Below, in pieces: positions 1 through 39,219 of a stretch of DNA of 64,000 bases. Numbering within the stretch: the stretch's first letter is position 1; each line of letters opens with the position of its first letter. Under the pieces are notes generated by a model. The model saw only the letters and a program-made list of their open reading frames with translations, made no database searches and had not been told where the DNA came from. The translations under genes and the position numbers were made by a program. This DNA comes from an uncultured Pseudomonadota bacterium (GTDB lineage: Bacteria; Pseudomonadota; Alphaproteobacteria; RF32; CAG-239), in the NCBI GenBank assembly GCA_949286215.1, contig CASDYX010000004.1:20001-84000 (forward strand), in the 5' to 3' direction.

Positions 1-3000
1 AAATCACACTGCCTGTTCCGGTCGGAGAGGCTTCTGTTTTTCCTAAGCTCCGACGGTTCTTTTCGAGTTCACGTTTTCCGGTTACAACTGGGTCATCAAT
101 AAATACATCTTTCTTGCCTTGTCCACCAAGTTCTTTCGGATTGCGGTCTCTGGTTCTCATCCACAAATCTACGTTCGGATAAACAATAATGCGTGTGCCG
201 GCGGGAACATAGGTCAGCGGACGAATATTGGTCTTATCTGATAAGATTTGCTCAAATACTTGATTCATCTGATTCAAGAAGTTTTGGCGGGCATCGTTAG
301 CTGCTTGTTGTTTCGGGGTTTCATTTACACCCGAGTTGTCATTTTCATCATCTGCCATAATGTATGACGTATAGCTGGTTAGGGCCGTGGTCATAATCGG
401 CAAAGTATATTTCTTGAACAATTGTTGATCAAGATAACCCAGTGCGCCTCCTCGACCTTGGGCGTCTCCGGTAACACCGCTAAAGACAAACAATGAACCA
501 TCAGGACGAATGAGTCTTTCCCATGTTATTTGAACTTTTGCTGACTGAGATGTGGTTTCGGTTGTTCCGGTCAAACTTCCCAATGTGCCCATAATTCGGC
601 TTCCGGCGGGAATTATGATATTCCGTCCTTCTTCTGCATAAACATTTCGCTCGACAAATGCTGTTACCGGTGTTGGGTTATTACTGTCTATTGAACGAGC
701 TATAACTGCCGGAATCGGTTTATCTGCAAATATCATTTCACTTAAGTCAACTCGCCATGAAGATATTGCTTTTTTAATTCCTTGTTCGTCCCAATCTTTT
801 TGCATACCATCAAAAGTATCAGGGCTAATATTGCTGCTGATTTTTCCAACTTGCATATTGCTGCGTCGCTCTTGTTGAGCTGCGTCTAAAGCCATAGCTC
901 GTTGCGGGTCATATCTTTCTCCAGGACCAAAACCACCTCCAGGGCCGAGGTTTCCGCCAGGTCCTGTTCCTGTACCATAAGCTCCTCCTTGTCCAAAGGT
1001 TCCGGCCGGAATAAACATATCTTCGGCTGATGGTTTTGAGGTTTCTTCTATACCGATAAGGGCTCCTTCATCATCAATAACTAAGCCATCTGGCATACGA
1101 TGACCGACAACTTTTCCTTCTTTATTGACAACGCTGCCATCTTCCATAATATCGCCCAAATATTCTCCGTCTGGCGTTAAGGCAATACCTAATGAACGAC
1201 GATATTTCTCGGTCATTTTCTCTTCTTCGGGAGAAAGGCCAATTTCTGGTATGGAACTTGGGCGATTATACCAACCGGGACGACTGACCTTTCCTATTAC
1301 TTTTCCATTTTTATCTAGAACTTCGCCCTTTTCATTTACTTTACCTATTACGTTGCCGTCTTTATCAACAACCGTGCCATCGGGAAGAACTTTTCCTATG
1401 ACATTGCCATTTTCGTCATAGGCTAGATTTTCTTCTTTTTGGGGAGAAATAATTGAACCAATGGTATTGCCGTTGGCATCTATAATTGCACCGTTTTCTC
1501 CCAGCTTTCCAATTACCTTGCCGAAATTGTCAACGACCGTACCGTCTGGGAGAACTTTTCCTATGACATTGCCATTGGCATCATAGGCAACTTTGCTACT
1601 GGCTAATTCACCAATTACATTACCGTTTTTATCTACAACTTTTCCGTTTTGTACAGAACCGATTATTTTACCATTCTCGTCTGTTACGGTTCCATCGGCA
1701 TTAACATAACCTAAGAGATTTCCATTAACATCAAAAACTTTCTCTCTAGCAACTATCTCTCCATGATATTGAAGCGGTTTGGCAACGGCTATGACACGGC
1801 CATTGCTATCAATTATGCTGCCACTTTTGGTGATAGTTCCTAAAACATTATTATTTACATCTCGTAATTCGCCTTTTAGATTTAATTCACCTAAGATGCG
1901 GTTTGAATCGTCTCTGATGTAAAAGTCTCTGTTTCCGCGACCTTTTAGCTCTCCATTCTTATCAAGCAGGAAGCCTTTACTCAAAGTTCCTAAATTTTGA
2001 TTTACAAAAGATAAGACGCTGCCATCTTTCTGAATAACGCCAATTACCTCAAAGTCATTATCATAAATATAAAAATCATATAAAGCGTAACCTATTTTGT
2101 AGCCATCTTTTGTGACATTTCCCTCAAAGTCTACTTGACCAATGTTGTCTCCGCGAGCATCAATAACGGCACCATCTTGGGTGATATGACCTATATATTT
2201 GTTAGCATTGCTAAAGGCATAGTGATATTTAAACAGATGGCCTATCGGAGCACCGGTTTTTGAATTTACATTACCGTTTGCTTGCTCATAGCCGATAAAT
2301 TGATTTTCGGAATTTACGACCTGACCGTCTAAAACGCTGCGTCCAAGAATAACACCATTAAAACTCATTACCGGATAGTATTCAATGGTGTGTGCCAAAG
2401 AGACGCCTTCATCATTCTTTAAGAAGCCTCGCTTATCAATACAGCCCAAAATATTGTTGCTATAATTCAAAACTTGTCCGTTACTGGAAACTGTACCAAT
2501 TATGTTGCCATTATAATCAATAACAGCTGTCGGGTTGACGCTATAGCCGACATAAGAGCCGTTTTCTGAAACAACTTGTCCATTGAGCAAAGGTCTTCCC
2601 ATGACGGTTTCTCGATAATTGCGAACTTCTCCGCGAGAGGTAATAACACCTAAGAAAGAGCATTTATCGTCTATGGCGGTTGCATAATCTATAACACCAC
2701 CAATTGCAGAACCGGTATTGTCAAGCAAAGTTGCTTCGGAGGTGACTTTTCCTAGATTTGAACCGCCGAAATCTTTGGCTATACCTAAATTATTAACATA
2801 ACCGGCTAAACGACCATTAAAATATAGTGCTAAAGAAGCTTTTCGCCCTGTACCTTGCTGAGGCATCATATTTACTGACGCATTATCTGATGAAGAAACT
2901 AATGCTCCGTCAGGAATATATTTTCCGACGACGTTGCCGCTCGTTTTTTCGACCAGATTTCGGTTATTCAATAAACCAAGTGATTCTCCTTTTGAATCTA

Positions 3001-4489
3001 CAAAATAGCCATTTTCCAGACTTTTACCGATGATTAGGTTTCGTTCATCAACATTAAAACCGGATTGTGTTAATTTACCCAAGGCAGCAACATTCTTGTT
3101 GGTCAACTGTCCGTTAGGCATTATTTGAGCTACCGGCGTACCTGTAATGTTATAAATTGAGGATAAGGTTAAGCCTCGTCCAACCGACTTGCCGTCTGCT
3201 GAAAAAAGATAACCAAACGGAGACATATATTTTTTCTCTTCTCCATCCATAACAGAACCGCTAATACCCACAATTCCTAAGCTCTGGTTATTAGAATTCA
3301 CGGCTAATAAATTGTTCATTGTGGCGCCTATTGCGCGTCCGGTATTTTCGTATGCCATATTATCCATAATATAGCCGGCGGGCGTTCCTTCCATAGTTAC
3401 TATAGAGCCATTCTTTGAAGCATGTCCCTTTAGTGCTCCGCGATAATCAAAAACAGGTCCGGTTTTGATAATTTTACCAATGAGTTTTCCATCTGAAGAA
3501 AGGATTGCTCCTCTCGGACCGACTTGACCAATGTCGTCTTTTGCTTTGCGGACTTTTCCTTGAGGAACTACTCGTCCTAAATATTTACCATTTAAATCTG
3601 TAGCCGTTGCCGAAAAATCAACTACGGATCCTATAATTTCACCTTGTAAATTGACAATATTTTCATCTGCCTGAACACGACCGACAATATTGTTCTTATC
3701 AACGACTTCACCGTTGTATGTAACGAAGCCTAAATATTTTCCAGAGTTATCCAAAGCATAACCTGAACGAACAATACTTCCCATGATTTGATTGTCTTTA
3801 TTATAAACAAAACCATTGGCCTTGACATAACCAATCGTTTGAGCATCAAAATTGGTAACATTTCCTCCGGGGGAGACACTGCCGATAAAATCCCCACTTA
3901 GAGATACAACCATTTTTGAGGAAATCAGACGTCCGTCTAAAATATAATCTTGTCCGACTTTGCGATAGGCATAGCCGTCAGGAGATACAAAACCGATTGC
4001 CTGACCTTGTAAATTTGTGTATAAGCCATCGCCTGTCAAACGACCGACAGTTTTTCCATCGTCTGAATAAACAAGCCCAGGAAACAAAACAGAACCAACA
4101 ACATTAAAATATTCATCCAAGACCAAGCCGTTGGGCAATACTTTTGCTATTATTTTTCCTGAAGGAAGACGAACGGAACCATCATTATTGACTTTACCTA
4201 AGGGTTTATTATCATTGCCGATTGCAATACCTTGAGGAACAACGCCACCGATGATTGCGCCGTCAAAATCCAAAATCAAGCTGTCGGCCGTTACATTGCC
4301 GATTAATTGGTTGTCAAAACTTACGACTTTACCATCGGGAATAACTTTTCCGATTAAATCTCCGTTAAAGTCAACCGCCGTAATCTCCTGAGCTTGCGCA
4401 TTAAAGCAAAAGAGCAACATTCCCAAAAGAATGTTGAAAAATCTTAGTGTTTTGGCACAGTTTTTCTTTTTTGTTTTTTCCCGTCCCAA
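1..4489 (-). CDS. Giant tandem-repeat secreted or surface protein, N-terminal about 1500 aa; the ORF continues past the window start. Paralog of 4491..8414.
   Basis: The minus-strand frame is open from 4489 to position 1 with no stop, which is why it is missing from the ORF track. The only plus-strand ORFs here are short antisense artefacts. The likely start is TTG at 4487-4489, 6 nt after GGAGGA and 1 nt after the upstream TGA. The N-terminus KTKKKNCAKTLRFFNILLGMLLFCFNAQA/QE resembles a signal peptide. The body translates to repeats of the form NGN[VI]IG[KR]VxPDGTVVD, for example ...AVDFNGDLIGKVIPDGKVVSFDNQLIGNV... Confidence 0.6.
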   Translation of the reverse strand, partial: MGREKTKKKNCAKTLRFFNILLGMLLFCFNAQAQEITAVDFNGDLIGKVIPDGKVVSFDNQLIGNVTADSLILDFDGAIIGGVVPQGIAIGNDNKPLGKVNNDGSVRLPSGKIIAKVLPNGLVLDEYFNVVGSVLFPGLVYSDDGKTVGRLTGDGLYTNLQGQAIGFVSPDGYAYRKVGQDYILDGRLISSKMVVSLSGDFIGSVSPGGNVTNFDAQTIGYVKANGFVYNKDNQIMGSIVRSGYALDNSGKYLGFVTYNGEVVDKNNIVGRVQADENIVNLQGEIIGSVVDFSATATDLNGKYLGRVVPQGKVRKAKDDIGQVGPRGAILSSDGKLIGKIIKTGPVFDYRGALKGHASKNGSIVTMEGTPAGYIMDNMAYENTGRAIGATMNNLLAVNSNNQSLGIVGISGSVMDGEEKKYMSPFGYLFSADGKSVGRGLTLSSIYNITGTPVAQIMPNGQLTNKNVAALGKLTQSGFNVDERNLIIGKSLENGYFVDSKGESLGLLNNRNLVEKTSGNVVGKYIPDGALVSSSDNASVNMMPQQGTGRKASLALYFNGRLAGYVNNLGIAKDFGGSNLGKVTSEATLLDNTGSAIGGVIDYATAIDDKCSFLGVITSRGEVRNYRETVMGRPLLNGQVVSENGSYVGYSVNPTAVIDYNGNIIGTVSSNGQVLNYSNNILGCIDKRGFLKNDEGVSLAHTIEYYPVMSFNGVILGRSVLDGQVVNSENQFIGYEQANGNVNSKTGAPIGHLFKYHYAFSNANKYIGHITQDGAVIDARGDNIGQVDFEGNVTKDGYKIGYALYDFYIYDNDFEVIGVIQKDGSVLSFVNQNLGTLSKGFLLDKNGELKGRGNRDFYIRDDSNRILGELNLKGELRDVNNNVLGTITKSGSIIDSNGRVIAVAKPLQYHGEIVAREKVFDVNGNLLGYVNADGTVTDENGKIIGSVQNGKVVDKNGNVIGELASSKVAYDANGNVIGKVLPDGTVVDNFGKVIGKLGENGAIIDANGNTIGSIISPQKEENLAYDENGNVIGKVLPDGTVVDKDGNVIGKVNEKGEVLDKNGKVIGKVSRPGWYNRPSSIPEIGLSPEEEKMTEKYRRSLGIALTPDGEYLGDIMEDGSVVNKEGKVVGHRMPDGLVIDDEGALIGIEETSKPSAEDMFIPAGTFGQGGAYGTGTGPGGNLGPGGGFGPGERYDPQRAMALDAAQQERRSNMQVGKISSNISPDTFDGMQKDWDEQGIKKAISSWRVDLSEMIFADKPIPAVIARSIDSNNPTPVTAFVERNVYAEEGRNIIIPAGSRIMGTLGSLTGTTETTSQSAKVQITWERLIRPDGSLFVFSGVTGDAQGRGGALGYLDQQLFKKYTLPIMTTALTSYTSYIMADDENDNSGVNETPKQQAANDARQNFLNQMNQVFEQILSDKTNIRPLTYVPAGTRIIVYPNVDLWMRTRDRNPKELGGQGKKDVFIDDPVVTGKRELEKNRRSLGKTEASPTGTGSVI

Positions 4490-4490
4490 C

Positions 4491-7400
4491 TCAGTTCCTC
4501 CGGTTCTTTGCAACTTCCTGCAACGCATAGCCTGCAACTTTCTTATCCAAATTTACATATGAACCGTTGTTTTTAAGATAACCGACATTCTTGCCTTCGC
4601 TGTCTTGTACAATGCCTTCTGCATTTAAGCGACCGACGTAATTGCCGTCATTTCCTAAAATTGTGGCTCCTATCTTATAAATTTTTCCTATTATGTTGTC
4701 ATTGTTATCTATTGCCAAATCACCAGAAATGGCTCGACCAATGAGGCTACCTTCTTTGTTTCTGATTTTACCATCAAAATTTACATAGCCTACAACTTTA
4801 TCTGAGTTATCAATAACTATATCACCGTGGACAACTTCTCCGATTAATTTTCCTGATGCGCTGATTACATTGCCGTCTGACAAAACTCTGCCAACGACAA
4901 CATTTTCTTTATCAACAACTTGTCCGTTAGGCAACACTGAACCTATTGTATTACCCCCAAAATCAATAACGGTCCCTCTCCTTAGCAGACTCAGATTTTT
5001 ATCTGTCGAACCTCCTGGTAAAACAGCTGTAATTACTTCATTTTTCAAGTCTATTACGTCACCTATCGAATTTACGCGACCTTTATAATTTCCCCAAATA
5101 TCTACAACAATATTTTCGGGTATAACCTCGCCGATTACCGTCCCCTTCAAATCGATAACTTTACCATCAGAACTGGTGGTTCCGACTTTTGCTCCTTCCA
5201 TGCTGATAACCGTACCGTCTGTCGTAGCATAGCCTAAGAATGCTCCGTCATAACCAATTGCACTGCCTCTGGAAACAACTCCACCACGATAAAGCCCCTT
5301 GTTATCAATAAAATTGCCTTTAGCGTCTATTCGCCCTAAATTTTCACCAAAACGCGTAATAACTTGTCCGTCATGCGTAACCAAGCCTATCGTTTTGCCT
5401 TCAAAATCTGCTACAAAGCCTTTTTTGACGGTATTTCCTATCAAAGAATTGTAGAAATTCAGACCATCACCGTGGAGGCGACCGATTGCATTTCCTTTAG
5501 CGTCATAAACTTCTCCGTTGGGGAAAAGACGACCTTTGAAATTGCCTTCCGGAGAGATTATGGTTGCTTTTTCATCCATTAAAACACCAATAATTTCATT
5601 ACGGTCGTTAGCGACTAAATCATTGGCAAAAAGTTTGGCATCTGATTGTCCACTTATCGCAACTCGACCGTTTGGCCCTACTAGATTTAAGAAATTACCG
5701 TGTAAATCATAGGCATTCGTTTTTTCTAAAACACGACCAATATAGGCTCCGTCTTTATTGAAAACATCTCCGTAAGTGCCGACACAACCAACGGGAAGTT
5801 GTGATAAAGCTATAACCAAACCATCAGCAGAAACTTGCCCTAGGTATTCTCCGTCATAAGATAAAGCAACACCATTCCGGACAACACTTCCTATCACATC
5901 GCCTTTTTCACTTAATACCGTGCCATCAGGATTAACGCAACCAACGTAAACCCCTTCAGAAGAACGAACTATACCATCTGTTCCGACATCACCCATATAA
6001 GTACAATTGTTATCAAAGACTTTTCCGGTGCGCACAACTTCTCCGACATAGTTGTTTTCGGGGTCAACAATCACTCCATTGGGCATTGGTTTTAGCTTGG
6101 TTTCAGTATTGCCTTTTTTTATCTTACCATCAGCATCTAAATAGCCGATATTCTTACAACCATAACCAACAACCAAACCGCCCCTTACTAATTTGGCTAC
6201 GACTTCTGAACCCGAAGTATCACGAACCAAACCATTGGATAAAACTCGGCCAACAATTTTACTGTTTTGAACAACCGTTCCGTCGTTGTTGAGCTTTCCA
6301 AGAACTGTACCTTTCGGGGTAATCGGTATCATGCGGGTTTGAACCAATGCTCCTAATGTCTTATTTTGTGAGCTGATAATATTGCCGTTTTCATCAACAT
6401 AACCTATTTCATTACCATTTAGGTCAAATACTTTTCCGTTGGCATCAACATACCCGATAACCTTTCCGTCTTTATCTAAGACAAGATTAACAACCTCACC
6501 GGCTTTTCCGATAACATTTCCTTCCAAATCGACCAAAGTGCCATCGTCTAACATTTTTCCGATGATATTGCCGTTGAAATCAACAACGTTACCGTTTTCA
6601 TCAATATAGCCAATAACATTTCCATCTTTGTCGTATGCCAAGCGTCTTTGTGCGCCAATACTCATATCGGCAACTTTGCCTATGACATTACCGTTATTGT
6701 CAACAACCGTGCCATCGGGCAAAACACGACCTATAATATTGCCATTAGCATCTCGAACGTTGCCATCTTCATCCACATAACCTATGACATTGCCGTCTTT
6801 ATCATAGACCAAACGTCTGCCGGGGACATTTGCTGCTCGTCCTATTGTATTGCCCTCAGAATCCACAATTGTACCATCTGGCAAGACTTTTCCGATGATA
6901 TTGCCATTCAAATCTACGACATTACCGTTTTCATCAACTCGACCTATTATATTGCCGTTTTTATCATAAGCTAATCGTCTTTGAGGGATGGATACGGATT
7001 TTCCGATAATATTGCCATTTTCATCGACGACATTTCCATTGGCGTCGGTTTTACCTATTATATTGCCATTAGAATCGACAACATTTCCATTTGAATCAAC
7101 AAATCCTATAACCTTACCATTTTTATCATAAGCCAATTTTACCGAGCCACCGGCATTGCCTAAAACATTTTTGCCAACAACTTTTCCGTTTTCATCAACA
7201 TGACCAACAATATTGCCGTTTTTATCTACAACTGAACCGTCGGGCATTACAACACCAATCACATTTCCGTTTTCATCAACGGCAACGCGTCCTTGTTTGC
7301 TTACTCGACCAATTACTTTACCGTTAGCATCAACAGCCTCTCCGTTTGCATTGAGACGTCCGGTCACATTACCGTTCATATCAACAACCGTACCATCAGG

Positions 7401-8414
7401 CATGACACGACCGACAATATTGCCGTTTTCATCATATACAAATCCGGCGTCAACCGCTTTACCTATAACATTTCCATTAAGATCAACAACCGTGCCGTCG
7501 GGGAGCATACGACCAATTATGTTACCATCTTTATCAACTACCGTGCCATCGGGATTAACATAGCCAATAACATTACCATTAGCATCATAGACCAATCGAC
7601 GATTTTCTGCTACGCCTATGACATTTCCGTTTTCATCGACAATCATCCCTGCCGAATTTGCTCGTCCGATAATATTTCCATTGGCATCACGCACATAACC
7701 ATCTTCATCAATGGTACCGATTATTTCACCATTAGGACCAATCGCATTTCTTGTGCGGAGACCTTTTGCTTCCTGCCCATCATTTGCTTTGGCTCCATCT
7801 GTCGGAACTTGCTCACAGAAATTGCAATCTTCTTTGCGGATAGCGTTTCCTTCTACTGGAACTTTTTCTGATTTTGCATTTGCTGTTGTTAAATTGGATT
7901 CATGCCAGGTTATGATAAAATTATTTTGTACATTACCAGGCACAACCGGTGTCCAACTCATTGTGATATCACAAGTTTCATGACCGCGCAGTTCTTTATC
8001 CGTACAATCATCCTTAAAGGTAAAACCATCAAAAGGAGGTTCTGCCAATTGAACAGAAACAATTTTTATGGCTGCTTTGGCATTTGTTCCTATGGTCAGA
8101 ACATTTTTAGCATCCGTGCCCAAAACGACTTGCCCCATCTGTACCGGATTTGGGGTGGTTGTTATCGGAGGTTCTTTATCTTCAATCATCCCAAATTCAA
8201 TATTATTGCTTGTGCCGTTATCGGCGGCAATATTTAAGGCATCATCATTGGTTGTAAATACGGGTTCCGTATATTCATTTTCAACCGGACCACTTTGCAT
8301 TAAAAGCATTACACCCAGAACAAAGATTACAAACGAGGTAATACCAACCACAAATATTATGCGGTTGGTCTTCTTTATATAACTCTCCGAATGTGTTAAT
8401 ACCTCTTTGCTCAT
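4491..8414 (-). CDS. Giant tandem-repeat protein of 1307 aa. It has an N-terminal TM/signal anchor, about 40 copies of a 17-residue (10+7) repeat with consensus xNGN[VI]IG[KR]VxPDGTVVD, and a degenerate repeat tail.
   Basis: Complete ORF. The ATG overlaps the virB9-like stop as ATGA at 8411-8414. The N-terminal hydrophobic stretch is IIFVVGITSFVIFVLGVMLL. Spacing between Gly positions in the repeat region alternates 10 and 7 residues. Confidence 0.8.
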   Translation of the reverse strand: MSKEVLTHSESYIKKTNRIIFVVGITSFVIFVLGVMLLMQSGPVENEYTEPVFTTNDDALNIAADNGTSNNIEFGMIEDKEPPITTTPNPVQMGQVVLGTDAKNVLTIGTNAKAAIKIVSVQLAEPPFDGFTFKDDCTDKELRGHETCDITMSWTPVVPGNVQNNFIITWHESNLTTANAKSEKVPVEGNAIRKEDCNFCEQVPTDGAKANDGQEAKGLRTRNAIGPNGEIIGTIDEDGYVRDANGNIIGRANSAGMIVDENGNVIGVAENRRLVYDANGNVIGYVNPDGTVVDKDGNIIGRMLPDGTVVDLNGNVIGKAVDAGFVYDENGNIVGRVMPDGTVVDMNGNVTGRLNANGEAVDANGKVIGRVSKQGRVAVDENGNVIGVVMPDGSVVDKNGNIVGHVDENGKVVGKNVLGNAGGSVKLAYDKNGKVIGFVDSNGNVVDSNGNIIGKTDANGNVVDENGNIIGKSVSIPQRRLAYDKNGNIIGRVDENGNVVDLNGNIIGKVLPDGTIVDSEGNTIGRAANVPGRRLVYDKDGNVIGYVDEDGNVRDANGNIIGRVLPDGTVVDNNGNVIGKVADMSIGAQRRLAYDKDGNVIGYIDENGNVVDFNGNIIGKMLDDGTLVDLEGNVIGKAGEVVNLVLDKDGKVIGYVDANGKVFDLNGNEIGYVDENGNIISSQNKTLGALVQTRMIPITPKGTVLGKLNNDGTVVQNSKIVGRVLSNGLVRDTSGSEVVAKLVRGGLVVGYGCKNIGYLDADGKIKKGNTETKLKPMPNGVIVDPENNYVGEVVRTGKVFDNNCTYMGDVGTDGIVRSSEGVYVGCVNPDGTVLSEKGDVIGSVVRNGVALSYDGEYLGQVSADGLVIALSQLPVGCVGTYGDVFNKDGAYIGRVLEKTNAYDLHGNFLNLVGPNGRVAISGQSDAKLFANDLVANDRNEIIGVLMDEKATIISPEGNFKGRLFPNGEVYDAKGNAIGRLHGDGLNFYNSLIGNTVKKGFVADFEGKTIGLVTHDGQVITRFGENLGRIDAKGNFIDNKGLYRGGVVSRGSAIGYDGAFLGYATTDGTVISMEGAKVGTTSSDGKVIDLKGTVIGEVIPENIVVDIWGNYKGRVNSIGDVIDLKNEVITAVLPGGSTDKNLSLLRRGTVIDFGGNTIGSVLPNGQVVDKENVVVGRVLSDGNVISASGKLIGEVVHGDIVIDNSDKVVGYVNFDGKIRNKEGSLIGRAISGDLAIDNNDNIIGKIYKIGATILGNDGNYVGRLNAEGIVQDSEGKNVGYLKNNGSYVNLDKKVAGYALQEVAKNRRN

Positions 8415-10057
8415 TGCGTCCTTACTACGCTACAAAACACTCCGTTTCTTCCTAAACGACTGCACACATTATCGCCTGATTCCAAACTCTTTACAGGACC
8501 TACGCGTAAGTGAAACAGTTCTTTTCCTTGTCCATCTGCCGGTGCATCTACTGAGAAGAATGGCTCATAACGGCTCAAAACATCAGGATACTTTTTAGAA
8601 AGCTCACTCCACAAATTTTCCAAATTAGAGACATTGGCATCTGTTCCTAACTCAATTGAAATGTTTGAGCTGTCAGCATCAACAAATCCTGAACCAAAAC
8701 CATATCCGCCCTTGCTGCCTCCTTGAGAGCCACTATTTCCGGCATATTGATTATTGTTCTTTATGTGTTGCATTTTGGAATAATCATATCCATCGTTAGG
8801 CGGCTGGAAGCCAATATTTACGCCATTGCCGTTATTTCGGCCATTTGCCATATTATTGCCATAACGAGGAACAACTATTTCACTTTGGCCAACTTGAATA
8901 TCGTATTGTCCGGGCATGCCACCATTGGCTGAAGAATTAAATTCACTATCTCCACCGGATCCTCCCGTCGGGCGCATTGTTCCTCCCGGAAGCGGAGCCG
9001 GAACATCCCATGCGGCATCATCAAAATCTGTGGCGTAAGTTGCATTTTCCAGACCGGCGTCATCCGAACGGCGCATCTTTAAGCAAACAAGTCTTTTACC
9101 GTTACGCAAAACCATATCGCCAATACCTTCAACAATAATCAAGCGATTGTTCGGGCCTTTAGTTCTAAAGCCAACCGGAACTTCTATTCTTTCAACAATT
9201 AATGTGACTATCGGACGCTGTGTCATATTTAGAGCTTTTTCACCAAAATCAATATAAGTGAAAATATCATCTCTCCATACTCTTTCAGGTGCAATAACAA
9301 CATCATCAGGATTTGGAACATAAACCTCAATATCAAATCTAAATTTGCTAGGATCAACAGGAATGTCTTTTATCCAATCACTTCTTTGAAAGCGCTTGGT
9401 AAAAAGAGAATCTGCAGAGTGCGAATTATTAGCTTTGTAGGTTGAGGCGTTCACTCCCGAACCACCGCCGACACTGCCTCCGGATATTCCGGCTCCTCTT
9501 GAGCCTGCCGGTCCATCAATCACATCAATATCAATGATAGAGTTGGTCAAACGTTCTGTATTTACGCCTTCACTTTTTACATAAAATACATATTTATTTC
9601 CTGAACGACCAAAAATAATGATATTAGTATCAACGCCGACATTTGCTCCTTTTCGAGGATAGAGCAAAATTGTATTCGGACCGGAAATTTGCCCATCAAA
9701 TGTCGCATTGTCACCGATATACATATCCTCAATTAGTTCCCACTCAGGAAAATTAAGCAAAGTTATCATACCTTCACGAAGACGTATCGGCAAAATTAAA
9801 TCCGGTGACCAATAGTATTTAGAATATGCCGGTTTGCTTTGACCTTCACCCAGATTTTGGAGCGGATCGAGCCAAGCAGCCTGCGTCATTCCCAAAGAAT
9901 TAAAGCCGGCATAGCCAAGATTCATCGGCATATATTGCCCCTGACTTTGGTCGGCGTTTTGATCCAGACTGCCCATTGTTGCCTGAGATAGAGCATTACG
10001 GCTCAGCGTCAACGCAACGACCATTACTAATAAACTTTTGCCAACTTTCAAAATCAT
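8411..10057 (-). CDS. virB9: VirB9/CagX/TrbG-family outer-membrane core protein with a Gly/Asn-rich linker and a C-terminal SPOR-like peptidoglycan-binding domain
   Basis: It has a signal peptide MILKVGKSLLVMVVALTLSRNALSQA. The N-domain ILPIRLREGMITLLNFPEWELIEDMYIGDNATF...NTILLYPRKGANVGVDTNIIIFGRSGNKYVFYV fits the VirB9 N-domain pattern. The C-domain FRFDIEVYVPNPDDVVIAPERVWRDDIFTYIDFGE...RLIIVEGIGDMVLRNGKRLVCLK fits the VirB9 C-domain pattern. The C-terminal stretch ...ELFHLRVGPVKSLESGDNVCSRLGRNGVFCSVV resembles the FtsN SPOR motif RVVIGPVKGKENADSTLNRLKMAGHTNCIRL. Confidence 0.7.
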   Translation of the reverse strand: MILKVGKSLLVMVVALTLSRNALSQATMGSLDQNADQSQGQYMPMNLGYAGFNSLGMTQAAWLDPLQNLGEGQSKPAYSKYYWSPDLILPIRLREGMITLLNFPEWELIEDMYIGDNATFDGQISGPNTILLYPRKGANVGVDTNIIIFGRSGNKYVFYVKSEGVNTERLTNSIIDIDVIDGPAGSRGAGISGGSVGGGSGVNASTYKANNSHSADSLFTKRFQRSDWIKDIPVDPSKFRFDIEVYVPNPDDVVIAPERVWRDDIFTYIDFGEKALNMTQRPIVTLIVERIEVPVGFRTKGPNNRLIIVEGIGDMVLRNGKRLVCLKMRRSDDAGLENATYATDFDDAAWDVPAPLPGGTMRPTGGSGGDSEFNSSANGGMPGQYDIQVGQSEIVVPRYGNNMANGRNNGNGVNIGFQPPNDGYDYSKMQHIKNNNQYAGNSGSQGGSKGGYGFGSGFVDADSSNISIELGTDANVSNLENLWSELSKKYPDVLSRYEPFFSVDAPADGQGKELFHLRVGPVKSLESGDNVCSRLGRNGVFCSVVRTQ

Positions 10058-10078: not shown

Positions 10079-10813
10079 TTATCGAACTTTGTTTAGCGTC
10101 AATGAATATCTATCTACCGTAAAGCCGACCGGGTTATTTAATCGTTCACCATATTTTACGCTTTTTTTAACATAACCGACACGGAGAGATGCCGTCCAAT
10201 AATTTATTTCCGGCTTAACAGAATCCGGATACATATCTTGAGTTTCATATTCTACTTGCCAAAGTCCTTGACCAAGCTCATTTACCGTTAAGATACGAAC
10301 ATTTCTTTGCAGGCTCTTGGTTCGGATAATTTCGATTGCCCTTTTAGCCGTCTTATTCAAAAATTCTTGATAAACTGCCGGAGAAGACATTTCTTGTATC
10401 GGGCCGCCCGGCATCCAACGAGCTTCCATTTCCGGAATATCCCTATCAAAAGAACTCCTTTGCAACACATATTCTCTCACAAACACTTCGGTAATGGCTT
10501 TTTCATCTGCCAAATTGCCCCTAACAGGAACAATATTATAAACCTGTTCCCCCTTTGCCTGAAACGTTAATAAAAACGGCTCTATACGGAACAAAGGCAT
10601 TACTTGAACAATTGCCAAAAACAACACGACATTACAGCACAAACTAATAGCTGTAATTACGGCGAATGCACGAGCCGTCCAAAGATATCTTTTTTCACCG
10701 ACATTCGCAACGAAGACGTCTTCCGTCGTACGAGACTTAACTTGCGACTGAGGACGCACCTGTCCCCCACCAATAAGACGTTGCTGTGTGTTATTTTCCA
10801 GACGATTATCCAT
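10079..10813 (-). CDS. virB8: VirB8-family protein: N-terminal cytoplasmic tail, one TM, and a periplasmic NTF2-like domain
   Basis: The single TM is AFAVITAISLCCNVVLFLAIVQV. The C-terminal NPVGFTVDRYSL matches the VirB8 NPxGF signature. Its size is 244 aa. Confidence 0.75.
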   Translation of the reverse strand: MDNRLENNTQQRLIGGGQVRPQSQVKSRTTEDVFVANVGEKRYLWTARAFAVITAISLCCNVVLFLAIVQVMPLFRIEPFLLTFQAKGEQVYNIVPVRGNLADEKAITEVFVREYVLQRSSFDRDIPEMEARWMPGGPIQEMSSPAVYQEFLNKTAKRAIEIIRTKSLQRNVRILTVNELGQGLWQVEYETQDMYPDSVKPEINYWTASLRVGYVKKSVKYGERLNNPVGFTVDRYSLTLNKVR

Positions 10814-10821
10814 TGGTTTTC

Positions 10822-11010
10822 CTAAATCGTTTCAACAAACCAATCGGGAAGATTTTTAGGCAGTTCAACCTGCATACAAGCGCAAGGTGATAACTTCAAT
10901 TCATCAACACCTTTACCAACGCCTACCGGTTCAGCCTCATAATATGAACCAAAAATGCCGCAAGATGATAGCAGCATGAGCACAAAAAGCATAATTATCT
11001 TTTTTGACAT
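10822..11010 (-). CDS. virB7: Small lipoprotein, VirB7-like by position and size
   Basis: It is 62 aa with the lipobox LLSSC in MSKKIIMLFVLMLLSSCG. It sits between the two virB8 paralogs. Confidence 0.55.
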   Translation of the reverse strand: MSKKIIMLFVLMLLSSCGIFGSYYEAEPVGVGKGVDELKLSPCACMQVELPKNLPDWFVETI

Positions 11011-11124: not shown

Positions 11125-11883
11125 CTATAATATTTCTACTTCAGCTTGCGAGTAGCGCGTGACGGTAAAACCTATCGGATTAATCAATCTCAAGCCCGTA
11201 AATTCTCGCCCGGGGATGAAAAATGCCGTGACTGATGCCGTCCAATATTTAACTGTCATTATTCTGGCGCGGGTCTTTTTATCTACCGCATATTTTGATA
11301 ATTCATAAGTTTTGAAATCCACTTTCCAGACAGGGCTTCTCTCTCCGCCTTGTTTGCCTATGGAGATAATTTCTACTTCTCTAACTATGCCATCGTGGCG
11401 CATTTTTTCCCAAATGCTGTCACGGTACTGAGAAAACTCGTTATAAACTCTTGGAGCTGACAAAAAATTAACCATTCCGCCGTCATACCAGCGAACTTGC
11501 ATTTCTCTTTCATCATCAATTATGGTGTTGCGAAGAATTACAAATTGCGCAACAAAAATTTCCATGAGCTTGTTTTTAGATGCCATCCGGTTTGTAATTG
11601 CTTCTGCGCGAACTATCCCCTCAGATGTATCTTGATTGATGATTAAAAACGGCTCGACCGAAACCTGTGGCGCTAACTTAAAAAGGGCCAAAGAAAAACT
11701 CATAAACACTAAAAGTGATAATATTGCAAAAAATATAAAAAGACGTGAAAGCCACATATAATATTTAAGCTTAAAGCCTTCTTTTTCTTGCTCTGTTTCG
11801 CTGATGAACTCGTGCGTTTGGCCGTTAGAATCCGTCAATGACAGAACCTTGGCGCCTTCTAACTGCGGATTTATATTGTTCAT
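11125..11883 (-). CDS. virB8: VirB8-family paralog
   Basis: The TM is LFIFFAILSLLVFMSFSLALF. The C-terminal INPIGFTVTRYSQ matches the VirB8 signature and parallels 10079..10813. Confidence 0.7.
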   Translation of the reverse strand: MNNINPQLEGAKVLSLTDSNGQTHEFISETEQEKEGFKLKYYMWLSRLFIFFAILSLLVFMSFSLALFKLAPQVSVEPFLIINQDTSEGIVRAEAITNRMASKNKLMEIFVAQFVILRNTIIDDEREMQVRWYDGGMVNFLSAPRVYNEFSQYRDSIWEKMRHDGIVREVEIISIGKQGGERSPVWKVDFKTYELSKYAVDKKTRARIMTVKYWTASVTAFFIPGREFTGLRLINPIGFTVTRYSQAEVEIL

Positions 11884-11898: not shown

Positions 11899-14800
11899 TT
11901 AATATGCTGCACAGAAAGGTATCGGATAAGCATTTATTTGTTTTTCAAATTCTTCATCGGCTTTTTTCTTGTATTCCGATGTTACTTGATGGTTGACTTC
12001 TTCCGTCTTTATTTGTTCATCTAATTCCGAACCACTGTCTGTGGCATCATTTAATGATATGTATGCTTCCTTATCTTTGCGCAAAGCAGTAAATATATTC
12101 TTAATCTTATCTACTCTTTCTTCAACTATTTCATTCTCCATCACATTAACTGCACTTAATTCTTCTGTTCCCTCATTTACTAATGTGTTTTTATAGCGCA
12201 TCAGTGTTTCTTTGGTTAAGTCATAGTCTTCTTGCTTTGCTAAGTCATAATCCGCACGCGGGGTAAAGCCTATCTTTTCAAATTGTTCAAACAAGTCTGC
12301 TTTGGCTTCATCTACGCTCAACTTCATTTCCTCAAGCGCTTGACGATAGCTGATTTCTTGTTCAACAAAGCTCAAGAAATTGCCGATTTGGTTATGATTC
12401 AATAAGGCTTTTTCATATACTATATCTTGCATATTCTCAGTATATGATCCGCCATTTTGTTCTTCTGCCATTTTTTCTAAACGTGTTAATACGGTGTTGG
12501 GGGCATCATTGTAATATAGGCCAGAATCCGTTGCCTTTAACAATGTGCCTAGTTCACTATGCGCACCATTTTCTTCTTTTTCTTGCGAGGTGAGAACTTT
12601 GGCTGAGGCGGTTACATCTTCAACTTTATCTTTTATTGTTACGTATCTCTTTATTTGCCCTAAGATGCCGGGGGCCTTTTCTATGCTTATTTCGTTACAT
12701 TGCGGCATTTGGCTGATTTCCTCTTGATTGGCAAGAGTTTGCTTATTATAGACGCTAAATGTTCCATCCTCATTGACTAAATCTACAATTTGGTCATCCA
12801 AAATACAGGGGTATCTGCCACCGCGCATAAAGTTTGCTGCTTCGTCCCCCTCGGATAACAAGGTTTTTAGGTCAATATCCTTATCAACAAAAGCCTTGTC
12901 TTTTAAGATTAATTTCCATATTTCAGGGAATTTTCCTCCACTGTTAAGGAAACCTTCTTTGCTGATTCCTCCATCTGAAGTTTTTCCTACATTATCAGAA
13001 TCGACATCGTCAAAGTGTACAACCTCTCTGAGTGGCGGTAAATATTCTTTAAGAGAATTTTTCGGAGCCATAAAATCGCGCTCTTTGCCATATGAACCAA
13101 CAAAATATTCCGAATCCTCTTGCATGCAAACATCTTCGGCACAGGCCTTTTCTATTAACATTTTTTGAAACATCGTTGTCAGAGGTTCAATGATAGATTT
13201 TGTTTTTGCATAGGCTCCTACTGATGATGAGAATTCTTGCAAGCCCTCAACAGGTAATGCTTTTAATTTTGTCATTAAATTTTGGTGCAGACTTAAAATC
13301 TTGTCTCCATAAGCACCAATGTACACATCTTCTCCTAAATTTAATATTGCATTGTGGGTATCATCAACCAACTGAATGGCGTATTTTCTCGTATCATCCG
13401 TTAAACCATTGGCTGTTTGCAAAATATTTAACAAACTAAACGCAGGCTTAATTCCATCTATTCCAGGTACGGGAAGTCCTATTTTATCTTTATAATAGGC
13501 AATTAAGTCCAAAGTTTCTTTTGCTTGGCGCTTTTCTTCTATGTATTTTTTAGCTTCTTCTAATTTGGTGTTATATGCCTGCTCTATTTGTTGAACTTGT
13601 GCAATATAATTTTTTTCAACAGCATCTATATCGGCATCAATGGCTTCTATCTGCTCATTTATTGCCCCTATTTCTTTATCCTTACTATCAACCTGAGCCT
13701 TCAGACTTGAGGCTAGTTTGTCTTTTTCTTGTACTTCGGATTGATAACGGTTGATTTCTTCTTTTGCAAAAGTCATCCCCTCCGTATCTTCCAAATTGAG
13801 GACTTCGGTTTCACTATTGTTGGTTGCCGTATATTCTGCACTTTGTGCGGCTTGGGTTTTCTCTTCTACGACATCCGTTGTTTCCAGAGTATTTACATCT
13901 ACCGTTTCTTCGACTTTTGCATCAAGCTCTGCATCTAACTTGGCCTTTTCTTGCTCATAGTTAAAGGTGTTATATTGTGCGCCAAAATATAGTGTTCTAC
14001 TCAGACTATATTTGGTCGTATTCTGAGGTGCATAGTCTCCGTTATCACTAAAAGGCCGACGACGAAACAGTGTTTTCTTTTCTGTGTTGGACTGAGACCC
14101 TGTGGAAGAATTATTCTCCGGATATAGGCTTAATGAACCATCTGGATTGCTGATAACATTTGATTGTTCCAAATTTTGTTTTTCTTGAACTTGTTGTTGC
14201 TTTGCTTGATAGTTTAACTTGTTCATTTTGTCTTTATATTCGGAAATAGCTTCACTGGTATCAAAAAGCATTTTTTGCTCAGTATTTTCCTTATATTCCG
14301 TCGAGTAAACCTGCTTTGTGGTTTCCGGACTAATTTCATAGGTTTCTGATGTATACTCAACATCACTTTGCTTTATGATATTGTCCTCAATATTGCCTTG
14401 GCGGTCTTCAAGATCTTTAAGCATTTTTTCTTGCGTCGAAATCCCTGCTTGTGCGGATAGTTTATCTTCTTGTACTGTATTGAGTTGTTCGGAATAATCT
14501 GATAATAGACTTGAAGCCTTATCTAATTTTGCCTGCAGGTTCTTTTTTTGGCTTTCTAAACTTTGGAGGCGAGATTGCTTTGTGTTTAGAGCCTGTTGCA
14601 ATAAATCATCTCGATTTTTTTCTAACTCTTCCAATACGGTAGCCGGATCTGAAGTTGCGGCTTCTTTCTTCAATTGTGCAGCAAGACTATCAAGACCTGC
14701 TCGATTGTTGGCTCTTTCGTCCGCATCTTCTGTTAAGATGTCATTGAGAGGATAGGCTATCTCTACTATAATTGAGCTAACATCGTACTGTTGTAAGTAA

Positions 14801-16512
14801 TCTTTGATATTGCCATACTTACCGCTCAGATATTGATTATAAAAACTGATTTGATCGTTCCATATTGGAAATTTTTCTGTCGGCGTACCCCATTGTGGCG
14901 TTGTTTTATGTTGATCTTCTACCAACATCTGCGCTGCCTCTGAGCCTATGTTGAAAGATACCATTTGAGATTCCCGTGTGGATTCTTCTATCTTCTCGGT
15001 TTGGCTTGCATCTACCAAACCGTTACTGTTTTTAGTTTCCAGCTCTTTTTGAATTGTTTTAAATCCATCGGCATCATCTATATCAACATCAGTGCTGATT
15101 TCAATTGTTCCCAAATCTTCCGGCTCTATCGGGGTGCTTTCTTCTGATTTTGCTAATTCAAATGCTTTGACAGCCCAACCAGATAAACCTTGGCGAGCAT
15201 CATAGTCATTGGTGGCAGCATCAGCCATATTGCCTTTCCATACTGTTTGAGGAGATGAATAGTAACGGCCTAAATATTGCATAACACATTGGTCTGATGC
15301 ATCTACAGCTTCAATTGCTTTTTGGTGTAATCTTTGATATTGCTGATAGCTCTTAAATATTTCCTGATAACTGTCCAATGCTTGTATTAAATTATGGACC
15401 TCCAGTGCTTCTTGGGCTTTTTCATATACAGGAGCAATTTTATCTAATTCCTTAATTTTTTCTTCATTGCCGGCAAATGGAGAATCAATGTTTGGCTTGG
15501 TTGCCTCTCCAAAGGTGACATTTCCGTAAAGGGACGGATTATAGACATAATCTTCATCATCATCTTGGGTCGTTGTGGTTTCTGCCGCTGTTTGAGATGA
15601 TTTGAGATTGAAATCGGCTTGTGTAATAAAACCTAATTGACCAAACATTAAGGTTTCTTGCCGCGAAACAACACCTGAAGAAGCAAATTTTAACGTCTCA
15701 TGAGTGCTATTGAAAGATGTTTTTTCTTGAGCAGCTTTTTCTTTGGCTTCTCTCTCTTCTTTGCTGACATAGTCTGCAGGAGTAATTTGGTTATGCAGTA
15801 AAAGAGCCGCTTCGTATTGAATTTTCATAGCCAAGACTTCTTGGGTTATTTTTAAGATACTGTCCATGGTTTCATAAGCGTTAAAAGCATTTTTCCAAGC
15901 ACCGTTTTCGTCATCACCACTTTCGGCTCCATCAGCGCCGGAACTACCACCGGCAAATGTGGTTGAAAGTTTGTCAACCTCTACCGTCAAGGTTTCCAGC
16001 TCTTCTTCCAACTTTCGAGAAGATGTATAAATTTCAATAACCGTATCTTCATAAAACTCTTGCGCTTTAGCTTCATAAGCTCTGCATTGCTCATATTCAT
16101 CGGCACCTTTATCACAATCAACAGGATAAGCTAAAAACAGCTCATATAAGGCCTGTTTTACGGAATTGGCATCATAAATATCGGCTGTTTTTGTTTCTTC
16201 AATGGTTTTAGAACCTGGCATGTCCTTTTTTTCTTTTTTTTGGAACAAGCCACTCATGAAACCTGTAAATTTAGACATATATTTGTCTTTAGCCGCCTTA
16301 ACTGCCGCAGTAGCATTGTTGGCATAAGTTTGGAGTTGAGCTGCGGCCCCTTGCGCTGTAGCTGCAATATTTTGTGAAGCTCCGGCCACATCTGTTGGAG
16401 CATCCCCTGTCGGAGTAAATGGCCCCGGGGGTAGAAGAAAGCCATAAGAAGACATTGCCGAACCAAGAATCAGCATAGAAGAAAGAGTAATTATTTTGAG
16501 TAGTTTAATCAT
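11899..16512 (-). CDS. 1537-aa secreted acidic coiled-coil protein with no transmembrane segments
   Basis: It has a signal peptide MIKLLKIITLSSMLILGSAMSSYG. The sequence is E/K/Q/D-rich with heptad-like stretches, and the translation shows no hydrophobic helices. It lies between virB8 and the upstream secreted-protein genes. Confidence 0.7.
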   Translation of the reverse strand: MIKLLKIITLSSMLILGSAMSSYGFLLPPGPFTPTGDAPTDVAGASQNIAATAQGAAAQLQTYANNATAAVKAAKDKYMSKFTGFMSGLFQKKEKKDMPGSKTIEETKTADIYDANSVKQALYELFLAYPVDCDKGADEYEQCRAYEAKAQEFYEDTVIEIYTSSRKLEEELETLTVEVDKLSTTFAGGSSGADGAESGDDENGAWKNAFNAYETMDSILKITQEVLAMKIQYEAALLLHNQITPADYVSKEEREAKEKAAQEKTSFNSTHETLKFASSGVVSRQETLMFGQLGFITQADFNLKSSQTAAETTTTQDDDEDYVYNPSLYGNVTFGEATKPNIDSPFAGNEEKIKELDKIAPVYEKAQEALEVHNLIQALDSYQEIFKSYQQYQRLHQKAIEAVDASDQCVMQYLGRYYSSPQTVWKGNMADAATNDYDARQGLSGWAVKAFELAKSEESTPIEPEDLGTIEISTDVDIDDADGFKTIQKELETKNSNGLVDASQTEKIEESTRESQMVSFNIGSEAAQMLVEDQHKTTPQWGTPTEKFPIWNDQISFYNQYLSGKYGNIKDYLQQYDVSSIIVEIAYPLNDILTEDADERANNRAGLDSLAAQLKKEAATSDPATVLEELEKNRDDLLQQALNTKQSRLQSLESQKKNLQAKLDKASSLLSDYSEQLNTVQEDKLSAQAGISTQEKMLKDLEDRQGNIEDNIIKQSDVEYTSETYEISPETTKQVYSTEYKENTEQKMLFDTSEAISEYKDKMNKLNYQAKQQQVQEKQNLEQSNVISNPDGSLSLYPENNSSTGSQSNTEKKTLFRRRPFSDNGDYAPQNTTKYSLSRTLYFGAQYNTFNYEQEKAKLDAELDAKVEETVDVNTLETTDVVEEKTQAAQSAEYTATNNSETEVLNLEDTEGMTFAKEEINRYQSEVQEKDKLASSLKAQVDSKDKEIGAINEQIEAIDADIDAVEKNYIAQVQQIEQAYNTKLEEAKKYIEEKRQAKETLDLIAYYKDKIGLPVPGIDGIKPAFSLLNILQTANGLTDDTRKYAIQLVDDTHNAILNLGEDVYIGAYGDKILSLHQNLMTKLKALPVEGLQEFSSSVGAYAKTKSIIEPLTTMFQKMLIEKACAEDVCMQEDSEYFVGSYGKERDFMAPKNSLKEYLPPLREVVHFDDVDSDNVGKTSDGGISKEGFLNSGGKFPEIWKLILKDKAFVDKDIDLKTLLSEGDEAANFMRGGRYPCILDDQIVDLVNEDGTFSVYNKQTLANQEEISQMPQCNEISIEKAPGILGQIKRYVTIKDKVEDVTASAKVLTSQEKEENGAHSELGTLLKATDSGLYYNDAPNTVLTRLEKMAEEQNGGSYTENMQDIVYEKALLNHNQIGNFLSFVEQEISYRQALEEMKLSVDEAKADLFEQFEKIGFTPRADYDLAKQEDYDLTKETLMRYKNTLVNEGTEELSAVNVMENEIVEERVDKIKNIFTALRKDKEAYISLNDATDSGSELDEQIKTEEVNHQVTSEYKKKADEEFEKQINAYPIPFCAAY

Positions 16513-16525
16513 TCTTTTTCTCCTT

Positions 16526-27914: not shown

Positions 27915-28253
27915 TTAAATGTTACCAAATGTGGTTGCTAAGCCTGCTTCGGTAGAACCGGTTGCATATTCAACGATTGAACCTGCGGCTGCCAAAATTG
28001 CCAAACCTACTGCAAGGCCGGCAAACCAAGTCCATTTTACCTTACCAATAATTGCTGAGTAAGCAATACCGACCAAACCGAAACCACCTAAAATAAAGGT
28101 AATGGTTTTAACACTATCAAATACGTTACGTGTTTTCGTAGTTGCAGTATTCATCAAGCTGGCACCATCAGCCCAAGCTTCTCCACAAAAACCCATTGCT
28201 ACAATCAAGGTCAAGCAGCAAAGAGTTAAAATATTTTTCTTAATAAATTTCAT
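27915..28253 (-). CDS. virB2: VirB2/TrbC-family pilin
   Basis: It is 112 aa with a signal peptide ending AWA/DG and two hydrophobic helices. It is the first gene of the minus-strand cluster. Confidence 0.75.
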   Translation of the reverse strand: MKFIKKNILTLCCLTLIVAMGFCGEAWADGASLMNTATTKTRNVFDSVKTITFILGGFGLVGIAYSAIIGKVKWTWFAGLAVGLAILAAAGSIVEYATGSTEAGLATTFGNI

Positions 28254-30554: not shown

Positions 30555-30620
30555 GCCTTGGTAATAAGTCGTGCCTGACGCTTGATTATTTATTTTTCAA
30601 TATGTATTATAGGGAAAAAT

Positions 30621-32922: not shown

Positions 32923-32934
32923 GGATTTATAAAA

Positions 32935-35713: not shown

Positions 35714-35721
35714 GATGAAAT

Positions 35722-37386: not shown

Positions 37387-37389
37387 GGA

Positions 37390-38520: not shown

Positions 38521-38524
38521 AACT

Positions 38525-39124: not shown

Positions 39125-39219
39125 ACTAAAATTTGTCATAAAAGATTAAACAAATATTATTCTTTTTTATGATAAACTGTCGGTTATAGTTTTAAGTTCC
39201 GTTGATTTACGAGGGCATA

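Follow-up and report, generated by a model that had tools for sequence, protein, structure and literature searches.

A probable repeat-expanded VirB10 split into an anchor gene and a channel gene in a type IV secretion operon of uncultured gut Alphaproteobacteria

The 64,000-nucleotide stretch of DNA analyzed here (the window; positions 20,001 to 84,000 of contig CASDYX010000004.1) belongs to an uncultured alphaproteobacterium of the gut, a close relation of Candidatus Scatocola, and carries on its reverse strand a chromosomal VirB-type type IV secretion system (T4SS). Within the T4SS operon lie two adjacent giant genes, g1 and g2, which are read here as the N-terminal "anchor half" and the "channel half" of a probable split giant VirB10. 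g1 occupies positions 4491–8414 and encodes 1307 amino acids (aa). g2 (1–4489) starts with a TTG codon at 4489..4487 and runs off the window start, with 1496 codons inside the window and the last 78 outside; its full length of 1574 aa was taken from an identical Logan contig (L001, from ERR10610604), on which virB11 comes next after g2. The two genes together encode 2,881 aa on two polypeptides.

The genes are tightly joined to each other and to the preceding virB9. The TGA stop of virB9 and the ATG start of g1 overlap as ATGA (8414..8411), and at the g1/g2 junction the sequence ...AAC CGG AGG AAC TGA is followed by one base and then by the TTG of g2. The g1 TGA stop lies at 4493..4491, and a Shine-Dalgarno (SD) sequence, GGAGGA (4501..4496), is contained in the C-terminal ...NRRN codons of g1, 6 nucleotides before the g2 start. 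A preliminary description of this DNA had reported the ATGA overlap and the GGAGGA-TGA-G-TTG arrangement and proposed translational coupling; both arrangements are found in the sequence, and the SD within the final codons of g1 is kept in 65 of 72 species. The last two Arg codons of g1 are CGG AGG in 65–68 of the 72, so that GGAGG is retained at synonymous sites; this strongly supports the coupling of g2 to g1. The junctions are consistent with co-transcription of virB9, g1 and g2; promoter and terminator motifs were no commoner than in shuffled sequence in a scan across the region. An alternative in-frame ATG for g2 (4528–4526), 13 codons before the TTG and overlapping the end of g1, would extend the n-region of the signal peptide only. 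An ATG at the same position, 38 nucleotides upstream, occurs in about 10 of the 72 species, and one orthologue (P0002) was called from it.

The C-terminal part of g2 contains a TrbI/VirB10 β-barrel domain (residues 1253–1443; positions 161–733), which scores 117.7 bits with the Pfam model PF03743 (cut-off 35; E 7.4e-34). A phmmer search with the C-terminal 395 aa retrieved ComB10 (2bhv, E 2e-20) and also CagY, pKM101 TraF (3jqo), Xanthomonas VirB10 (6gyb) and R388 TrwE (7o3j). The alignment with ComB10 continues through the segment between the barrel strands, and the domain includes the segment aligning to the ComB10 antenna; a Pro-rich tail follows it. The NCBIfam ComB10/VirB10 equivalog models match g2 below their strict cut-offs (109.8 versus 300, and 95 versus 220). 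The gene order in the window and L001 is virB8, virB7-like, virB8, virB9, g1, g2, virB11, and the order virB9-VirB10-virB11 is repeated in four related loci (L002–L005). Because of its TrbI domain, its position between virB9 and virB11 and its matches to solved VirB10 structures, g2 is VirB10 itself. VirB10/TrbI proteins characteristically assemble as 14-mers into an outer-membrane channel that has a pair of antenna helices.

The cytoplasmic tail and inner-membrane transmembrane (TM) segment that are typical of the VirB10 N-terminus are not on the g2 polypeptide; they are carried by g1. g2 begins instead with a cleavable-type signal peptide (residues 1–33; 4391–4489), recognized from its sequence pattern of an h-region followed by AQA↓QE. 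A lipoprotein signal was considered for g2 and rejected: position −1 of the motif LLFC is a Phe, and none of the orthologues shown has a Cys by the AxA site. The N-terminus of g1 (residues 1–42; 8289–8414) comprises a conserved cytoplasmic tail and a single TM helix, delimited from hydropathy, an AlphaFold2 model and invariant alignment columns. Residues S9, Y12, K15 and N17 of the tail are nearly invariant, and the TM helix, of 21 residues, has a Kyte-Doolittle peak of 3.0 (residues 18–42) and falls within a helix modeled from residue 8 to 39. The AlphaFold2 run covered residues 1–700 of g1 and used alignments of its orthologues. It places a disordered stretch between the TM helix and a periplasmic ASH/PapD-like immunoglobulin (Ig)-like sandwich at residues 84–192 (7839–8165), modeled with a confidence (pLDDT) of about 85. 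Three Cys residues at or near this domain (C137, C148 and C200) are invariant, and C197 is nearly so. In Foldseek searches the domain matched HYDIN (2e6j, TMt 0.70) and CEP192, and there are weak matches to the Pfam ASH and NCBIfam choice-of-anchor-D models. The N-terminal signal or anchor sequences that the preliminary description had ascribed to both proteins are present, as the TM helix of g1 and the AQA↓QE signal peptide of g2.

The relatives of g1 connect it to VirB10. Residues 1–227 of g1, comprising the tail, the TM helix and the Ig-like domain, align to residues 1–221 of a fused 2201-aa VirB10 (P0157) with 27% identity (BLASTP, E 7e-27), and the whole protein as query finds many proteins of 2,000–2,400 aa that combine repeats of the g1 type with a TrbI domain and cover 99% of g1. 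One such locus (L005) has virB8, a small open reading frame (ORF), virB8, virB9, one 2213-aa VirB10 and virB11, without a separate g1. The retrieved proteins were sorted with a hidden Markov model (HMM) of the g1 N-domain and by the presence of TrbI. Both domains occur together in 83 proteins, 77 of which exceed 1,900 aa (1,930–2,406) and the others of which measure about 520–1,500 aa; the N-domain alone marks 40 g1-like proteins, and TrbI alone 223 proteins (g2-like proteins, ordinary VirB10s and fragments). Thirteen VirB10s of 520–630 aa, for example from Microvirga tunisiensis, have the N-domain and TrbI with zero or one repeat unit, and a 755-aa protein from a Rickettsiales metagenome-assembled genome (MAG) has two. 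The ordinary layout in this VirB10 lineage is a cytoplasmic tail, a TM helix, an ASH/Ig-like domain, a linker and the TrbI barrel (520–630 aa). The expanded forms have about 1,600–2,200 residues of 17-residue hairpins where ordinary VirB10 has its linker, on a single protein of 2,000–2,400 aa in the sister lineages and on two coupled genes in the clade of the window. Because its N-domain aligns to the N-terminus of TrbI-carrying proteins, g1 is homologous to the N-terminal part of VirB10. Database labels on the relatives include "TrbI family", "cOMB3", "DUF3659" and "5-fold beta-flower protein", and no description of a repeat-expanded split VirB10 was found in the literature.

Most of both proteins consists of the 17-residue repeat. 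G..[VIL]G motifs stand exactly 17 residues apart across nine successive units (229, 246, ... 365). An HMM built from the units located 51 of them in g1 and, within the window, 38 in g2; 79 score positive, in good agreement with the "about 80" copies first estimated. About 35 units lie near the consensus NGN[VI]IG[KR]VxPDGTVVD, at residues 228–680 of g1 and about 905–1140 of g2, and the others are degenerate; the hairpins number about 46 in g1 and 33 in g2. The canonical block of g1 (residues 222–680; 6375–7751) is partly organized in super-units of about 54 aa, each with three hairpins and an xRRLAYD linker, and is followed by degenerate repeats (681–1297; 4524–6374) in which the HMM and 12 stretches of the Pfam family Bflower_2 were recognized. 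In g2 the degenerate repeats come first (34–905; 1775–4390; HMM and Pfam). They are followed by a canonical block (906–1072; 1274–1774; repeat HMM and alignments), which contains two copies of a variable 51–55 aa unit (967–1072; 1274–1591) seen in cross-species alignment, and by a linker, three further hairpins and a Gly-rich low-complexity stretch (1073–1215; 845–1273) read from the translation. The statement that the proteins consist almost entirely of repeats proved too broad, as residues 1253–1443 of g2 form the TrbI domain and residues 1–220 of g1 the non-repeat anchor and Ig-like domain.

The repeat had been described as not placeable in any named family. It belongs to the Pfam families PF21785 (Bflower_2; 273.9 bits, E 9.5e-83, and 231.1 bits, E 1.8e-69, in the two proteins, with a cut-off of 38), PF21784 (Bflower; 129.6 and 95.4 bits) and PF12396 (DUF3659; 145.1 and 85.2 bits), the latter two also above the gathering score. 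The E values for Bflower_2 exclude a chance origin of the repeat. The β-flower families were made for a fold known from AlphaFold models, with short β-hairpin "petals" and a [DNEQ]xxG turn, that is without a PDB homologue or a known function (Durairaj et al. 2023, PMC10584680). In this fold the petals join up as a shallow barrel of 8, 10 or 12 strands. The NGN.IG and PDG/ENG turns found here every 17 residues match this motif. In the AlphaFold2 model the repeat array of g1 forms about 28 hairpins, each of some 17 residues, in which strands of 5 and 3 residues alternate; this bears out the β-type repeat expected from the sequence. Along part of the array the confidence drops at intervals of ~54 residues. 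Structure searches found no solved-structure homologue of the hairpin repeats. An RHS/YD-repeat protein was considered and rejected, since the RHS_repeat and TIGR01643 matches (E 2.5e-24 and 4.6e-23) stem from the xAYDxNGNxIG motif; the period is 17, and the Pfam and NCBIfam searches detected neither an RHS core nor a toxin domain in g1 or g2. The Pentapeptide family has no Pfam match in either protein.

The preliminary description had regarded both proteins as fibers or adhesins exported or displayed by the T4SS. In this interpretation the repeats would be surface-displayed, and the T4SS would export or present them to host or prey, as has been proposed for the CagY repeats on the sheath of the Cag pilus. 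Long regular β-repeat arrays and an origin in animal guts are in its favor, as are the type IVb pilus cluster and the AIDA-type autotransporter nearby, which suggest an adhesive lifestyle; the repeat regions of CagY and DotG have been proposed to be host-exposed (PMC6761968). Nevertheless, the C-terminal part of g2 is the VirB10 channel domain, and g1 combines a TM anchor of N-in orientation with a cytoplasmic tail that is conserved. The repeats of the fused relatives lie between the inner-membrane anchor and TrbI, and are thus topologically periplasmic. Neither Pfam nor structure searches gave a match to an RTX, YadA-head or β-solenoid adhesin repeat or fold. A repeat family with its own secretion route was to have made the association with the T4SS incidental; the family can now be named, and it has no known secretion route. 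Since both proteins carry Sec-type N-terminal signals, they do not appear to be T4SS cargo. The surface interpretation is improbable on this evidence. g2 is the VirB10 core subunit and g1 a homologue of the VirB10 N-terminal anchor; the association with the T4SS is real, and closer than had been proposed.

The split was followed across species by scanning one genome per GTDB species with an alignment of TrbI. The scan yielded 292 related loci. The best 80 of these all come from MAGs of uncultured Alphaproteobacteria, sampled from the guts of humans, mice, chickens, rabbits and ruminants. By TrbI identity, the nearest loci are CALXOP010000113 (98%) and Ca. Scatocola faecipullorum (94%). The gene is split in 76 of the 77 loci that hold both parts, a number that includes five loci taken up before the species scan; the lone fused locus is L005. 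The C-terminus of g1 is always L[Q/P/L]EVAKNRRN, and g2 starts 0–4 nucleotides past the g1 stop, mostly with TTG or GTG. Across species g2 opens with a signal peptide of variable sequence; its AxA site and the start of the mature protein, (Q/I)EITAIDFNGDLIGK, are conserved. The fused proteins have an N-terminal TM segment only and lack an internal hydrophobic segment, which makes the signal peptide of g2 an innovation. In a neighbor-joining tree of TrbI, computed with no bootstrap, the ordinary forms are basal, the fused giants form a grade and the split forms are nested inside it. This nesting indicates that the split is derived; its presence in 76 of 77 loci, with constant flanking peptides, a new signal peptide and a conserved SD, indicates that it is ancient, maintained and functional. 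We infer a history in which a VirB10 with the order TM, Ig, linker and TrbI gained a hairpin array in place of the linker, and one lineage then split the gene.

The same data bear on whether the split is simply decay, that is, a nonsense or frameshift mutation in a giant virB10 that left a pseudogenizing remnant. The virB4 gene of this operon is indeed broken by an in-frame TGA, and its relatives at 89–91% identity include single ORFs with both VirB4 domains. Against this stand the intactness of both g1 and g2 across 2,500–3,500 codons, and the retention of their boundary in 76 species-level genomes, where g2 has acquired a signal peptide and both the SD and the peptides flanking the boundary are conserved. 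Because these features are conserved, decay is very unlikely, and hardly credible as an account of the locus.

Lengths vary in a restricted manner. Across 71 species g1 measures 1068–1574 aa and g2 1420–2181 aa. In six loci (L020, L021, L024, L033, L081 and L016) g2 is 2,080–2,370 aa from stop to stop and g1 about 1,160–1,400 aa, with a pair length above 3,400 aa. In a comparison of the six closest species, g1 is free of indels of 5 aa or longer, and g2 differs at one site, around residues 1018–1070, by −48, +153 (136+17), +153 and +204 aa. This hot spot corresponds to the tandem 51–55 aa unit of three hairpins, LAYDxNGNVIGRxLPDGTVVDxNGNVIGRVNxNGExVDxNGNVIG, which is present in one copy in L006, L010 and L011, two in the window, five in L007 and L009 and six in L008; in L009 adjacent copies are nearly identical. 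In the well-sampled "Azospirillum sp. CAG:239"-type species, the protein is 1570 aa long in 91 of 120 clusters. Five clusters have +48 aa and one +141 aa at the equivalent place, which makes 6 of about 115 near-identical clusters, and the remaining length classes reflect start-codon calls or a one-residue change. The fused proteins are constant in length within clusters; in one cluster, each of the 15 members listed measures 2201 or 2202 aa. These nearly invariant lengths within species are unlike those of immune-driven surface antigens, and count further against surface display of the repeats. In a sister species (L003 10001–15136, protein P0004, compared with P0051 of L002), virB10 contains a 141-aa in-frame tandem duplication on one contig. 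The crossover joins a canonical DGTVVD hairpin to a post-linker DDGSVVD hairpin, and the linker itself is doubled; the duplication may be a genuine allele or may have arisen in assembly.

At the DNA level the longest exact repeat is 26 nucleotides, at 1386 and 1551 inside g2, 165 nucleotides apart, and forms the exact core of the two hot-spot copies of the window, which are 77% identical. The best match between g1 and g2 is 80% over 79 nucleotides, so that the nucleotide comparison gives no sign of the gene-conversion tracts looked for between them. The suggestion that the genes are substrates for recombinational length variation thus holds for one hot spot in g2; it does not extend to g1, which is unchanged, or to widespread conversion between the genes. 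Copy-number change by recombination does occur; it appears to be local, confined to g2 and infrequent, with the reservation that short-read assemblies may under-report variation at the hot spot.

Taken together, we favor with a probability of about 0.72 the reading that g1 and g2 are VirB10 in an extreme, repeat-expanded form, split into an anchor gene and a channel gene. The sequence signals imply an N-in, anchored topology for g1 and Sec export for g2. g1 would be anchored in the inner membrane, and g2 would be exported by Sec and assemble with VirB9 and VirB7 into the outer-membrane core. Both hairpin arrays would fold as strings of small β-modules that fill or bridge the periplasm and replace the Pro-rich linker. 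By pairing non-covalently, the arrays of g1 and g2 would re-create the link from inner to outer membrane that a single VirB10 chain provides, and the 51–55 aa array beside TrbI would change its copy number by unequal recombination, tuning the length of the spacer between lineages. A more detailed version can be offered only tentatively: a two-chain VirB10 with g1 as the inner-membrane sensing part and g2 as the outer-membrane gate, held together by non-covalent hairpin pairing alone, in which the hot spot beside the gate acts as a CagY-like heritable "rheostat" of length or activity in abundant commensal gut Alphaproteobacteria, and the hairpin arrays of at least 14 copies make up a megadalton periplasmic assembly of a kind not seen before.

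A different division of labor must be weighed here. g1 might be a subfunctionalized paralogue, acting as a DotF-like periplasmic scaffold or as an accessory that binds peptidoglycan or membrane, while g2 alone does the job of VirB10 without an inner-membrane connection. That g2 carries its own export signal agrees with this, as does the lack of g1 indels among close species in which g2 has its hot spot. VirB9 here bears a peptidoglycan-binding SPOR domain, and DotF offers a precedent as the inner-membrane partner of DotG in the Dot/Icm system (PMC6761968). The conserved cytoplasmic tail and TM helix of g1 are, however, those of VirB10, and the coupling kept in 65 of 72 species implies stoichiometric co-production. 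The extremely conserved C-terminus of g1 and mature N-terminus of g2 suggest a specific joint function, with the qualification that the end of g1 also encodes the SD. Such a scaffold role is rather unlikely in our estimation.

Several points weigh against the split-VirB10 reading. That g1 binds g2 is something we infer, and cleavage of the g2 signal peptide at its AxA site is predicted from the pattern alone. The in-frame TGA of virB4 may mean that the T4SS of this genome is inactive, and neither VirD4 nor a relaxase was seen in the window. The split pair is about 450–700 residues longer than the fused proteins. When 100-aa windows of g1 and g2 were placed on the fused proteins, the best and second-best positions were near equal and not collinear; the high-scoring segment pairs of whole g1 and g2 overlap on the fused proteins, and the positions of end fragments are inconsistent. 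The junction motifs NRRN and ITAID do not occur within the first 40 fused proteins. Because the repeat regions map non-uniquely between split and fused forms, simple fission cannot be distinguished from duplication with complementary loss, and either would fit.

Compared with known systems, the closest parallel is Helicobacter pylori CagY (Cag7). Both have a VirB10 C-terminal domain after a very large repeat region, and the TrbI domain of g2 matches the corresponding structures 8cb2 and 6x6j. Both are part of an "expanded" T4SS that includes additional large exported proteins, and in both an array beside the VirB10 domain changes copy number in frame (for CagY, as cited in PMC6761968). The proteins differ in that the repeats here are 17-residue β-flower hairpins with no sequence relation seen to the CagY repeat region, and in that the DNA copies have diverged. 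The variation seen here separates species or takes the form of rare alleles rather than of frequent switching among strains, and there are two genes and an ASH/Ig-like N-domain. Legionella DotG (IcmE), VirB10-like and part of the Dot/Icm T4BSS, has a TrbI C-terminus after 1–13 pentapeptide repeats, and its size differs between strains (PMC6761968). The variable number of short repeats before TrbI is thus shared, but DotG has pentapeptide repeats and keeps its own TM anchor. DotF, an adjacent inner-membrane partner that interacts with DotG, is functionally comparable to g1; g1 differs in its homology to the VirB10 N-terminus, no such derivation from DotG being evident for DotF. The β-flower proteins (Pfam clan CL0395, with PF21784, PF21785 and PF21786, and DUF3659/PF12396) share strong HMM matches and [DN]G hairpin turns with g1 and g2. 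The members described so far are small, with a single domain of about 96 residues, and include lipoproteins, whereas 80–90 hairpins are predicted here in a T4SS core subunit. The canonical proteins VirB10, TrbI, TraF, TrwE and ComB10 share the TrbI domain, the operon position and the N-terminal cytoplasmic tail and TM segment, the latter found here on g1. Canonical VirB10 is one polypeptide of about 380–450 aa with a Pro-rich linker; here there are two polypeptides, with an Ig-like domain and hairpin arrays in place of the linker.

VirB10 is regarded as the sole T4SS subunit that spans both membranes, and as the relay by which ATP-dependent signals of the inner-membrane ATPases reach the outer-membrane gate. 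On the reading favored here, VirB10 has grown five- to seven-fold in a clade of gut bacteria through a repeat fold for which there is no solved structure, and the cut in the gene between anchor and gate is a natural experiment on the need for covalent continuity. If the two-chain VirB10 is true, a T4SS functions without such continuity across the periplasm. The locus would represent a third, independent repeat expansion of VirB10 after CagY and DotG, and the first functional context found for the β-flower fold. It points to a Cag-like "expanded" T4SS, unstudied and passed on vertically, in common uncultured gut bacteria. The β-flower hairpins, the 2,881-aa scale, the ASH-like periplasmic domain and the two genes with a new signal peptide are new with respect to CagY and DotG. 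Repeat-expanded VirB10 homologues as such, CagY and DotG, are already known (PMC6761968).

The remainder of the T4SS operon lies on the same strand. virB9 (8411–10057) encodes 548 aa with a CagX match (Pfam, E 2.4e-11) and a C-terminal SPOR match (E 5.9e-6). The peptidoglycan-binding SPOR domain covers residues 467–546 and is also flagged in L001 and L004; for the virB9 genes of L002, L003 and L005 no SPOR match is on record. Two virB8 paralogues (10079–10813 and 11125–11883) were assigned in the operon annotation. Between them lies an ORF of 62 aa with the lipoprotein signal LLSSC (10822–11010), which is likely VirB7-like; L002–L005 have a gene of 62–69 aa at its position. Two tandem VirB2/TrbC pilin paralogues (27426–28253) also come from the operon annotation. 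Paired VirB2 and VirB8 resemble the component duplication of Rickettsiales-type T4SSs. Five large proteins with signal peptides (1537, 451, 261, 773 and 1145 aa; 11899–20981 and 23964–27401) have no Pfam or NCBIfam family, and several are rich in coiled coils; their presence suggests that the system is a Cag-like "expanded" T4SS in which some components are lineage-specific. The operon gave no match to a canonical VirB6/TrbL. virB4 is present as two ORFs in the same frame, an N-part of 368 aa (22381–23487) and a P-loop C-part of 435 aa (21055–22362), separated by one TGA (22383–22381) and six codons. Several of the relatives at 89–91% identity are single ORFs of 600–757 aa with both domains, and others have the C-part only. 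The TGA is a nonsense mutation, a sequencing error or a site of read-through.

The genes beyond the operon are on the forward strand. A type IVb pilus-like cluster (28554–40182), divergent from the T4SS operon, encodes a TcpQ-like protein, a secretin, PilO, a T2SSE ATPase, a T2SSF platform protein and a second ATPase, and resembles the R64 thin-pilus or Tcp gene sets. Further downstream lie genes for a protein with a eukaryote-type Ser/Thr protein kinase domain (42880–44361), ribosomal protein S1 (rpsA, 56476–58179) and an AIDA-type autotransporter (58474–62040). These last three genes indicate that the locus is chromosomal and belongs to a Gram-negative host-associated bacterium.

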